In this document: piece by piece, positions 19,306-21,079 of the stretch
Numbering within the stretch: the stretch's first letter is position 1
How the letters are laid out: the number at the start of each line of letters is the position of its first letter
Assembly: GCA_036339735.1 (NCBI GenBank)
Contig: JAYZAL010000027.1
Location: 1 to 48,077 of the forward strand
DNA from: Candidatus Poribacteria bacterium
Lineage (GTDB): Bacteria > Poribacteria > WGA-4E > UBA9662
DNA length: 48,077 nucleotides
Direction: 5' to 3'
Program-made: the position numbers and the translations under genes
Notes under the pieces: generated by a model
Databases searched by the model: none
Seen by the model: the letters and a program-made list of their open reading frames with translations, nothing else
Told to the model about the DNA's origin: nothing

Positions 19306-19998
19306 TTAATTCGTCGCGAACTGATCAGTTTTCGTTAACACCATAGAAACGACCTCATCTATGGTCAAATCAGAGGTATCAATTACCATCGCTTCCTGAT
19401 CTATTTTTAGTGGGCTATTTGATCGAGATTTGTCAGCCAAATCTCGATCTTCGATCTCTTGAGCGATTTGTGAAACAGAGCAATTAAGGCCCTTTCCTTG
19501 AAGTTCATTAAACCGTCGGTAGGCGCGCACATCTACTGATGCCGTTATATAAAATTTCAGATCAGCATTCGGCAAAACGACGGTTGTTGTATCGCGTCCC
19601 TCTGCGACTACCCCCCCGGAAGATGCAATCCGTCGTTGCTGATGAATCATTTCCTTACGAACTCCTGGCACTTTGGCTACAGCCGCAACTTGAGCATCAA
19701 TAACGGGAGTTCGAATTTGAGCCGATACGTCAATTCCATCGAGCAAGGTTGTTTGTCCATTATCGACAAATTCAATTTGGCAATTCTGAGCCAACTCAGT
19801 TAGAGCAATCTGATTGCTCGGTTCGACTCCTGACTGTACGGATAACAACGTTATAGCTCGATACATCGAACCAGAATTAAGATAAACATAATCCATCCGT
19901 TCGGCTATTAGGCGAGCAACTGTACTTTTTCCAGAACCTGCAGGACCATCGATAGCAATCGTGAGAGCTGTCAGTGAACCAGGCATATCAACTGTCAT
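19306..19998 (-). CDS. cmk: Cytidylate kinase
   Basis: IAIDGPAGSGKST, SGSMYRA, VVAEGRD, R...SPL. Confidence 0.95.
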   Translation of the reverse strand: MTVDMPGSLTALTIAIDGPAGSGKSTVARLIAERMDYVYLNSGSMYRAITLLSVQSGVEPSNQIALTELAQNCQIEFVDNGQTTLLDGIDVSAQIRTPVIDAQVAAVAKVPGVRKEMIHQQRRIASSGGVVAEGRDTTTVVLPNADLKFYITASVDVRAYRRFNELQGKGLNCSVSQIAQEIEDRDLADKSRSNSPLKIDQEAMVIDTSDLTIDEVVSMVLTKTDQFATN

Positions 19999-20875
19999 TT
20001 TTTTCTTCCAAAGACTCTAATACTCGCTTGGCAGAGTCTAAATAGAAATGAATGGCATTGGCATCTCTGTTTTCCAGATATGTTTGAAACAGCTGAAGAT
20101 CATTGATTAAGTCAGAAATCATCGTGATCATGTTAGATCGGTTTTGTAGGAATATACTATTCCATAATTCAGGCGAGCCAGATGCTATCCGAGTAGTATC
20201 TCGGAAACCTGTAGCCGCATACTTAGTAGCAGCCTCCCCATTTACCATAACTTTTCCTACTGTTTCGGCCAAAATAGAGGCAACTAAGTGTGGTAAATGA
20301 CTAGCAGCTGCCAGTAAAGAATCATGTTGATCAGGTGTTAGAATGTAAACAGCTGATCCCACTGACTCCCATAGTTGAGTCACCATTTTTAAGGCTAAAG
20401 AAGAGGTATTGTCCGTCGGTGTCAGAAGACACTTGGCTGATTGGTACAGATCAGATCGAGCAGCAGAAACACCTGTTTTTTCTGAGCCGGCCATCGGATG
20501 ACCACCCACAAATTCAATGTTAGGGCACTCTAATAAAAGCTGATCTATGGTGTGAACAGGTTCTGATTTAACACTTCCAACATCGGTCAAAATTAACGAT
20601 TTAGAGGAATCTACCGATCTTAACACCCTTTCTATCATGGGTACAATCTGGTCCACGGGGGTGCATATAACAACTAGATCAGTATCAAGTAGTGCCTGAC
20701 CGAAATCAGTGGTGATTTTGTCCACAGCCTTAAGAGATTGGGCTATCTCTAGTCGTTCGATTTTTCGGCCCAGACCAACAATCTTACCTGAAAAACCATT
20801 TTGCTTTAAAGCCAGACCGAGGGAGCCGCCCATTAGGCCAACACCTAGAATAGTAATTTGTTGGATTTGATTCAT
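19988..20875 (-). CDS. tyrA: Prephenate/arogenate dehydrogenase
   Basis: GVGLMGGS, TDVGSVK, GGHPMAGSE, SHLPH, GFRDTTRIA. Confidence 0.93.
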   Translation of the reverse strand: MNQIQQITILGVGLMGGSLGLALKQNGFSGKIVGLGRKIERLEIAQSLKAVDKITTDFGQALLDTDLVVICTPVDQIVPMIERVLRSVDSSKSLILTDVGSVKSEPVHTIDQLLLECPNIEFVGGHPMAGSEKTGVSAARSDLYQSAKCLLTPTDNTSSLALKMVTQLWESVGSAVYILTPDQHDSLLAAASHLPHLVASILAETVGKVMVNGEAATKYAATGFRDTTRIASGSPELWNSIFLQNRSNMITMISDLINDLQLFQTYLENRDANAIHFYLDSAKRVLESLEEKNDS

Positions 20876-20918
20876 TCTATATTAGTAATAAATAACAACA
20901 TCATTGAACTGGTGACAT

Positions 20919-20948
20919 AAAAAAAGCAGGGCCAATAAGCCCTGCTTT
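20919..20948 (-). terminator. Rho-independent terminator 43 nt upstream of tyrA
   Basis: Minus strand AAAGCAGGGC-TTATTG-GCCCTGCTTT-TTTT: a 10-bp stem with a U tract. Confidence 0.85.
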
Positions 20949-20972
20949 GTGGGCCGTAGGAGGTTGGTGTAG

Positions 20973-21017
20973 CTAGTAGCTACTCTTACCTCCTACGACC
21001 GTATCTAATGGACACAT
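20973..21017 (-). CDS. Putative 14-aa leader/small peptide MCPLDTVVGGKSSY
   Basis: ATG preceded by AAGGAGGTGATC, a 12-nt complement of the canonical 16S 3' end; TAG stop at 20973-20975. Confidence 0.5.
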   Translation of the reverse strand: MCPLDTVVGGKSSY

Positions 21018-21050
21018 ACGATCACCTCCTTCTTCAATGGACACGCCAGA

Positions 21051-21079
21051 AAAATATCATGATTAATATATCATGTCAA
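21051..21079 (-). promoter_or_regulatory. Sigma-70 promoter for the small transcript and possibly the tyrA operon
   Basis: TTGACA-17nt-TATTTT with extended -10 TG. It overlaps two ATATCATG direct repeats. Confidence 0.6.

Follow-up and report, generated by a model that had tools for sequence, protein, structure and literature searches.

Does the short unit that stands directly before the prephenate dehydrogenase gene tyrA in a poribacterial genome serve that gene, encode a micropeptide, or act as an RNA in its own right? The window in which this question arises is the whole of contig JAYZAL010000027.1 (assembly GCA_036339735.1, Candidatus Poribacteria bacterium; 48,077 nucleotides, nt), and the unit occupies positions 21079 to 20919 of its minus strand. 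An earlier note had seen there a Shine-Dalgarno (SD) sequence, an open reading frame (ORF) of 14 codons, a hairpin and a terminator, and had suggested an unannotated translation-coupled switch, a micropeptide gene, or a decoy for ribosomes or small RNAs (sRNAs). Comparison across the phylum leads us to conclude, on sequence grounds, that the unit is a member of a real, conserved and unannotated RNA family with a translated mini-ORF and a core made of an SD sequence, a copy of that SD and an anti-SD. Its features point to a so far undescribed RNA for whose function the act of translation matters, not the encoded peptide.

Architecture of the RNA and its occurrence in Poribacteria

Read on the minus strand, the unit begins with a predicted promoter (TTGACA at 21079-21074, a 17-nt spacer and a TG-extended TATTTT at 21056-21051, scoring 10/12 in a consensus scan) and a transcription start predicted near 21048-21044. 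SD1, AAGGAGGUGAUC at 21031-21020, is a perfect 12-nt complement of the 3' tail of 16S rRNA. It is followed by the mini-ORF, whose 14 codons run from the AUG at 21017 to the UAG at 20975-20973 and encode MCPLDTVVGGKSSY. Two hairpins overlap this frame. P1, recognized by folding and by pair counts, joins GAUCGUAU (21023-21016) to AUACGGUC (21004-20997); SD1, with its 3' end, and the start codon, with its first two bases, both extend into this helix, whose final four bases, GGUC, double as the base of P2. P2 is a helix of 13 base pairs (bp) between the 5' arm GGUCGUAGGAGGU (21000-20988) and the 3' arm ACCUCCUACGGCC (20964-20952). The 5' arm contains, inside the ORF, the SD copy AGGAGGU (SD2, 20994-20988), the 3' arm contains the anti-SD-like ACCUCCU (20964-20958), and the apical hairpin GUAGCU-ACU-AGCUAC (20983-20969), with an internal loop, holds the stop codon. 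An intrinsic terminator closes the unit at 20948-20923, with an 11-bp stem (6 G-C pairs), a UAUU loop and a U7 run ending at 20919, for an RNA gene of about 130 nt. The promoter, the 12-nt complement of the 16S tail, the 14-codon ORF, the 13-bp stem with the stop codon and the terminator of the earlier note were thus all found on the minus strand at the positions it had given. The repeat GUGUCCAUU that it had also described is indeed present twice (21044-21036 and 21015-21007) but the repetition is missing from G001 and G004, and a role for it is unsupported. Here and below, genomes, families, genera and loci are labeled G, f, g and L, G000 being the genome of the window.

The strength of SD1 was evaluated against the 16S tail GGAUCACCUCCUUUCU, read from four relatives as the 16S gene of the window's own genome is not assembled. 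SD1 is the longest complement of this tail in the genome, and the 12-mer occurs once in 4.32 Mb (G+C content 40.6%) versus 0.42 occurrences expected from base composition. Among 2600 gene starts, crudely called for these statistics, GGAG or GAGG was found between -18 and -4 in 22.3%, compared with 3.2-3.5% at control positions, a 6-mer SD at just 1.35% and a 7-mer at 0.42%. The SD of the unit is therefore far stronger than the other SDs, as the earlier note had claimed from the protein genes that it had looked at. The organism appears to use SD sequences sparingly, with the 4-nt core at about a fifth of the crude gene starts; in G000, AGGAGG (952 occurrences vs 1295 predicted) and GGAGG (3796 vs 4359) are both slightly rarer than base composition predicts.

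The 141-nt RNA folds at -64.6 kcal/mol (z = -6.98), a value equaled by none of 200 shuffles. Taken together, the strong fold, the rarity of the 12-mer, the longest tail complement, the small number of strong SDs and the conservation described below indicate more than chance. Two mutually exclusive folds had been proposed for the unit and both exist. The alternative, in which ACCUCCU pairs with the SD of the ORF itself, reaches -50.8 kcal/mol against -58.2 kcal/mol for the minimum-energy fold, i.e., it is 7.4 kcal/mol weaker, and it arises by itself once the 5' arm of P2 is blocked. In the window copy the minimum-energy fold has a shorter inner hairpin, and full P1 is seen in the alternative fold. 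P2 has a helical length of about 20-22 bp in every lineage. A long-range helix of the minimum-energy fold, GGUGAUCGUA/UAUGUCACC, is broken in G001, G002 and G004 and was dropped.

All members of the family have in common a near-consensus promoter, a short leader, SD1, P1, P2 and a terminator. TTGACA-17-TAnnnT promoters stand at the matching place in the f3 and f4 copies, and the leader of the members is able to pair with the 5' half of SD1. SD1 is a 12-13-nt complement of the 16S tail across members, and AGGRGGUGAUC is present in every member that entered the ORF table (see below). The 5' arm of P1 opens with the GAUC of SD1 and closes at the start codon; that of P2 opens with the last four bases of P1 and bears the SD copy, the 3' arm being the anti-SD-like CCUCC. 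An extra hairpin region lies between P2 and the terminator in g8, g12, g23, g24 and g25, and in g8, g12 and g25 this region is a second copy of the P2 hairpin, P2b.

Pair counts were made over 24 distinct sets of arms anchored on their motifs, as the MAFFT alignment of f1 and f4 misaligned P1 and P2 and the cmsearch alignment mixed in reverse-strand matches. Two-sided changes were found in P1 at positions 5 (GC/AU, with GU intermediates), 7 (AU/UA/GC) and 8 (UA/CG), and in P2 at positions 2 (GC/AU/GU), 5 (GC/AU), 6 (UA/AU) and 7 (AU/GC). The GGRGG of SD2 and its partner are invariant amid these covarying neighbors. Judged from these counts, fixed SD1 and SD2 sequences beside covarying neighbors are what a three-part switch with one anti-SD arm and two partners requires. 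In seven close sequences, 5/13 pairs of P2 have changed, in the 3' arm only and always to G-U or U-G wobbles, and 0/13 are broken. In RNA from the other strand they would produce C-A mismatches, so that selection appears to act on the minus strand as RNA.

The collection of homologues that the earlier note had called for revealed a unit conserved in 12 genera. BLAST against 41 genomes recovered it before tyrA in both other g1 genomes and in one g3 genome; between g1 and g3 the RNA is 83% identical over 117 nt and the TyrA protein 66% identical. A pattern derived from the f1 and f4 versions (AGGRGGTGATC-N20-40-GGRGGT) and run on all 176 genomes of the phylum matched 5/6 genomes of f1 in addition to the window's own, 11/11 of f3 and 29/29 of f4, one of these last being a false match in a genome whose true copy (g8) is without SD1. 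In the sixth f1 genome the RNA is present with GGUC instead of GAUC. The reversed control pattern gave 6 matches overall; matches in f5 and f6, and second matches in G015 and G139 (g8), were excluded as coding-like sequence. The pattern was found in 0/112 genomes of f2, the largest family of Poribacteria, and the regions upstream of dapB at 14 f2 loci contained no related element. The dapB gene of the window's genome is also without such an RNA. Carriers thus belong to 12 genera in three families (f1, f3 and f4) of a single order of Poribacteria. The unit is single-copy in the window's genome and present nearly always once per genome in carriers; the member genomes are kin and these counts do not represent independent events.

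A covariance model of the seven close sequences (R1) matched 26/26 f4 genomes at 28-44 bits, the matches having the SD, the hairpin, one or two GGGAGG/CCUCCC helices and the terminator in common with the window copy. The same model missed f3 (0/10), although the pattern had found 11/11, and its negatives are unreliable. A metagenome scan with a 17-mer added 5 usable variants, the contig L099 being left out as it diverges past the apical hairpin and is possibly a chimera. When the pattern was loosened and run over all genome contigs, one true copy was present among the 120 matches listed.

In agreement with the description of the unit as unannotated, the f1 and f4 versions scanned had no match in Rfam. 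The window had none in Rfam 15 at the gathering threshold, the best sub-threshold match at the locus being Atu_C8 (25.3 bits vs a threshold of 50), and a scan at E <= 0.1 of the f1 and f4 loci returned nothing relevant. In titles and abstracts on small RNAs or SD sequences of Poribacteria and on dapB leader attenuation, nothing on this element was found. A motif reportedly named 'Poribacteria-1' in a 2017 survey could be matched to no paper; if it is included in Rfam 15, it gave no match here.

Two observations concern individual copies. At L151 (G139:C193:17595-17986, minus strand; g8), the whole leader and SD1 are gone and the -10 box abuts CAUUCUUG, possibly by a short-repeat deletion or an assembly error. 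L153 and L156 (contigs C1 and C3 of G148) are two identical copies with the same neighbor genes and probably correspond to a duplicated assembly region.

The mini-ORF and its peptide

The ORF table comprises 48 sequences, 42 of them distinct, from 12 genera. An in-frame NUG lies 7-9 nt past AGGRGG in 42/42 distinct sequences, as AUG in 8, CUG in 17 and UUG in 17, and the frame, having passed through the 3' arm of P1 and the 5' arm of P2, ends in the apical loop of P2 with UAG (37), UAA (3) or UGA (2). Its length is 13-15 codons, or 16 in g24, where it begins at an earlier in-frame UUG, and it ends three codons past GGA GGU in f3, f4 and g2 and four codons past it in g1 and g3. The distance between SD1 and SD2 is 26, 27, 30, 31 or 33 nt, covering all classes modulo 3, with the NUG always in the frame of the stop. 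In P2b, which lies outside the frame, the equivalent stop triplet has been lost in at least three variants, and the out-of-frame UAG of the P1 loop has become CAG in one g6 genome. At the level of sequence, a start codon that tracks the frame and a stop codon that changes its identity indicate translation.

Residues 2-6 of the peptide, encoded by the loop of P1, vary in sequence and in number, and even within g1 and g3 the peptide may end in Y, C, F or V. What the peptides share is a loose pattern, [MT]-[IV]-x-G-G followed by 3-4 residues, and these residues derive from stem nucleotides that covary with their partners; the codon at x is GUA, AAG, AUG or GAG, with compensating changes opposite. 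In ACG GUC GUA GGA GGU the third positions are invariant too between g1 and g3, and in the codons that vary between close relatives every change alters the residue. The earlier note had proposed to weigh covariation against peptide conservation, and the outcome favors the RNA: P1 and P2 covary, and in unpaired stretches of the RNA the encoded residues are not conserved. From these comparisons, the frame appears to be real and the peptide is probably not the product.

Further readings were dropped. The +1 frame of the window copy passes through the terminator and reaches 5 nt before the tyrA start but ends in the terminator loop in G001 and G004, which speaks against +1 frameshifting. TRAP-like triplet spacing, a T-box and hopping of the gene 60 type were judged by eye, and no conserved features of these were seen.

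Terminator and downstream genes

To model the effect of translation on the terminator, we blocked 31 nt as a ribosome footprint at 15 codon positions in turn, both for G000 and for G004. The terminator formed at 15/15 positions in both. Duplexes of the 3' arm of P2 with its linker, and of the 5' region, with each terminator arm were then compared with shuffles in 8 of the 12 genus representatives (f3 left out). For the upstream terminator arm, and for all duplexes of the 5' region, the energies were within about 1.5 standard deviations (sd) of shuffles; with the downstream arm, g1 (about 2.4 sd) and g6 (about 3.1 sd) were better than shuffles, and the other tested lineages gave no outliers. 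The distance from the stop codon to the terminator stem is 27 nt in f1, 38 nt in g6 and g14 and 63-76 nt in the others. Given a terminator at all ribosome positions, no shared competing pairing and a variable distance from the stop, neither an antiterminator nor ribosome occlusion fits the family. Of the translation-coupled switch suggested by the earlier note, the translation, as indicated by the frame, and the conserved logic of SD, SD copy and anti-SD are retained; switching of the terminator by translation is not supported. The decoy that it had also suggested is still a candidate.

In f3, the terminator (L162-L171, about 110-190 nt past SD1) is a much longer hairpin, with a 5' arm resembling CCCUCCUCUC and a 3' arm resembling GGGGAGGAGGG, so that anti-SD-like and SD-like strands make up the terminator itself. 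Hairpins of the form AAAGCAGGG-loop-CCCUGCUUUUUUUAU are also found as terminators at unrelated loci in g2 genomes (L111, L112 and L113). The terminator sequence conserved in the RNA may thus represent a type that is common in the group instead of a specific signal.

Stretches of the locus are represented, at an identity of at least 99%, in marine metatranscriptome assemblies. Among these, a contig of 151 nt from run X5 (depth 3.35) covers 20849-20999, from inside P2 across the terminator and into tyrA, the body of which has a depth of 4.12 in the same run. Such contigs give no ends, strand or level, and DNA carry-over is possible; the bridging contig is a weak hint of read-through transcripts.

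In the window, the gene that follows is tyrA (19988..20875, minus strand; Pfam PDH_N, 2e-37, and PDH_C, 3.9e-25), which starts 44 nt past the U-run of the terminator and is itself followed by cmk, an acyltransferase gene and an MBL-fold gene. Upstream, on the opposite strand, are an OmpA-family gene and a gene without Pfam match that has a lipoprotein-like signal sequence, as read from its letters. tyrA lacks an SD, and a scan between the terminator and its ATG returned no promoter-like site. Between 20875 and 20919, TAAUAU lies 3 nt ahead of the tyrA AUG. In g3 the U-run and the tyrA AUG are merely 17-20 nt apart; SD-independent or leaderless translation of tyrA are candidate modes.

The gene downstream of the RNA is tyrA in g1 and g3, dapB in g5, g7, g6, g14, g23, g24 and g25 (two families), a gene for a 3-keto-disaccharide hydrolase (DUF1080) in g8 and g12, and a gene for a Laminin_G_3 (LamG) protein in g2. 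In g2 genomes the intact RNA copy is located elsewhere, away from tyrA, and tyrA is preceded by a leader (L058, L063 and L067 in G003, G005 and G006, about 60-230 nt before its start) that has kept a promoter and a terminator with a UUUUUUUAUGUYCA tail and has lost SD1, the frame and P2. The G003 leader still contains the remnants UUGAAGAAG, AUGUGU and GACGGU. By its sequence, this leader looks like a decayed copy of the RNA.

Two possible insertions lie beside copies of the RNA. In G036, an ORF of 105 residues near the g8 copy (L129:2401-2718, minus strand) matches the Cas12f1-like TNB domain (2.5e-22); a TnpB-type fragment has probably been inserted here, behind the hydrolase gene. At L150:356-432 (G145), between the terminator of the RNA and dapB, there is a 77-nt near-perfect palindromic hairpin with chance-level microRNA matches in Rfam, which may be an inserted repeat element.

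Mode of action and rival explanations

The reading towards which we lean, tentatively and with real reservations, is that of a stand-alone translated sRNA operated by the ribosome as its ligand, with tyrA as a passenger on read-through. A free-standing function is favored by the single copy per genome, the unrelated neighbors, the strong conservation and the g2 copy that has been kept away from tyrA. Pairing of a 30S subunit with all of SD1 would melt the GAUC end of P1 and free the start codon, and the elongating ribosome would then unwind P2. With the stop codon in the A site, SD2 lies 7 nt (f3, f4 and g2) or 10 nt (g1 and g3) upstream of the P-site codon. This spacing is the same as that between SD1 and the start codon in an initiation complex, so that the 16S tail of the terminating ribosome could hold SD2. 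As long as P2 is open, its anti-SD arm would capture SD1 and block a second initiation; upon release, P2 would re-form and the RNA would be reset. Each RNA would thus engage ribosomes slowly and one at a time, and expression of tyrA would depend on the share of transcripts that pass the terminator. The weakest step is the output: in an organism with few genes that use a strong SD, the RNA could sense or buffer those 30S subunits whose 16S tails are free. A more specific version, in which an abundant ribosome-holding RNA (full complement of the 16S tail, slow mini-ORF, helix mimicking an SD/anti-SD duplex) buffers the 30S pool and shifts the balance between SD-led and SD-less translation, seems rather unlikely to us; if true, such an RNA would be a counterpart of the protein factors that mask the anti-SD.

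Several points weigh against a stand-alone sRNA. The RNA is co-directional with the next gene in 12/12 genera and four contexts, mostly within about 110 nt, and its distance to that gene is 17-30 nt in g3, g8 and g12, which leaves no room for a promoter; this arrangement suits a cis-acting leader at least as well. The bridging contig crosses the terminator at a depth of 3.35, similar to the 4.12 of the tyrA body. CUG, the putative start codon in 17/42 sequences, is a poor start codon in known bacteria, and the copy of one g8 genome has SD1 deleted. Part of this evidence, namely the constant orientation and proximity, the short promoterless gaps (to which the stretch before the window tyrA, equally without promoter, can be added) and the contig bridging 20849-20999, would suit the main rival, a cis-acting ribosome-sensing leader, in which the rate of mini-ORF translation sets terminator read-through or the life of the read-through mRNA, with dapB as the ancestral target. 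Such a leader would make a single gene respond to the capacity for translation instead of to a particular amino acid. It is also consistent with the linkage to dapB in seven genera of two families and with the decayed g2 leader, which retains a promoter and a terminator before tyrA. We consider it possible but doubtful, as the terminator forms at all modeled ribosome positions without a consistent competing pairing, the stop-to-terminator distance changes with the lineage (27, 38 or 63-76 nt), a single copy per genome precedes unrelated genes, and in g2 the intact copy was kept while the one linked to tyrA decayed.

The other explanations that we considered account for fewer of these features. 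If the peptide of 13-16 residues were the product and the RNA structure only tuned its synthesis, one could understand the strong promoter, the very strong SD, the dedicated terminator, the frame open in 42/42 sequences and the loose [MT]-[IV]-x-G-G pattern; a micropeptide gene, as the earlier note had envisaged, nevertheless seems unlikely, for residues encoded by unpaired RNA (2-6) vary, the last one differs (Y, C, F or V) even among members of g1 and g3, the conserved ones coincide with stem nucleotides whose partners covary, third codon positions are invariant between g1 and g3 while TyrA is 66% identical, and 17/42 sequences start with CUG. A processing or stability module, in which P2 would be an RNase III-type target and the long SD a ribosome-bound 5' stabilizer of the STAB-SD type, the two setting the half-life of the RNA and of read-through mRNA, is quite unlikely as well: the constant 20-22 bp of P2 in every lineage and a perfect long SD about 15-25 nt from the predicted 5' end would suit it, but the geometry of the ORF explains the length of the helix equally, and a start codon with a conserved frame stands behind this SD, unlike in STAB-SD elements. 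The position of an ORF, a hairpin and a terminator directly before a gene of the tyrosine pathway, with UAC as the last codon, recalls an attenuator of tyrA that would sense tyrosyl-tRNA at this terminal Tyr codon. We find this very improbable, as the last codon is UAC, UGC, UUU, UUC or GUC in close relatives, no antiterminator is predicted, and the unit also precedes dapB, hydrolase and LamG genes. Finally, the two to six SD-like motifs with GGA per RNA could serve as a sponge titrating CsrA/RsmA, but most of them are inside helices and PF02599 was found in 0/6 genomes of f1, 0/11 of f3, 0/20 of g8 and 0/4 of g6, nor was it found in the window's genome, in a search that detects CsrA in 3/14 control genomes (Escherichia coli, Bacillus subtilis and Thermotoga maritima). 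The absence of CsrA from most carriers excludes this titration for practical purposes.

Among known systems, the RNA works most like a leader-peptide or upstream ORF (uORF) attenuator, but the two features that define these, regulatory codons and an antiterminator, are missing. It resembles the leader-peptide attenuators of amino-acid operons (trpL, pheL and hisL type) in its promoter-proximal ORF of about 14 codons with an SD, ending inside a hairpin, and in the intrinsic terminator just before a biosynthetic gene (tyrA, or dapB in most relatives). Unlike them, it has no run of regulatory codons, with a single Tyr codon replaced by Cys, Phe or Val in close relatives and 0-1 Lys codon in the copies linked to dapB; it has neither a predicted antiterminator nor a conserved peptide, and it stands before four unrelated genes, in one copy per genome. 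The ribosome-stalling leaders of resistance genes (ermC/ermB, bmrB-bmrCD and mef/msr) also have short translated uORFs whose ribosome remodels a downstream helix hiding an SD-like sequence; the hidden SD of the poribacterial RNA differs in being inside the uORF with no start codon behind it, no pairing connects its switch with the terminator, and no resistance or transporter gene is downstream.

The three remaining comparisons concern the SD and the RNA as a whole. STAB-SD sequences are 5' stabilizers of Bacillus mRNAs, as in the cry3A leader, and share with SD1 an unusual length, perfect pairing, a position near the 5' end and a likely value in ribosome binding instead of protein output, whereas the poribacterial SD has a start codon at 7-9 nt and a conserved frame in 42/42 sequences, and a predicted terminator would end most transcripts before any long gene. 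The prfB +1 and dnaX -1 frameshift sites have internal SD-like elements that act on elongating ribosomes. Here too, a strong in-frame SD copy lies at a fixed short distance (7-10 nt) before the P-site codon at the stop, but there is no slippery site and no longer product is conserved. SgrS/SgrT, RNAIII/hld and SR1/SR1P are dual-function sRNAs with a small ORF. The poribacterial unit, with its own predicted and conserved promoter and terminator, would similarly be a short, structured, translated and independently terminated transcript. It differs from them in that the peptide is not conserved and that no conserved single-stranded seed is visible, SD1 being the one conserved stretch without pairing, and the only fixed sequences of the RNA being ribosome-related.

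For genome annotation, the gain is one added RNA gene, which in the window would explain why tyrA is without promoter and SD. The apparent absence of the RNA from f2 (0/112) provides a contrast for finding its partners. The RNA also offers a natural case for studying what an over-long SD pairing does to the ribosome, whether translation can start at CUG behind such an SD, and how termination is affected by an SD that precedes the stop codon. If our reading is true, Poribacteria have an undescribed and strongly conserved RNA gene in which everything conserved relates to the ribosome, i.e., an SD of 12-13 nt, an in-frame copy of it, an anti-SD mimic and a frame whose peptide is irrelevant. This would be either a new mode of action for a translated leader or a free-standing RNA that reads or buffers the availability of ribosomes.

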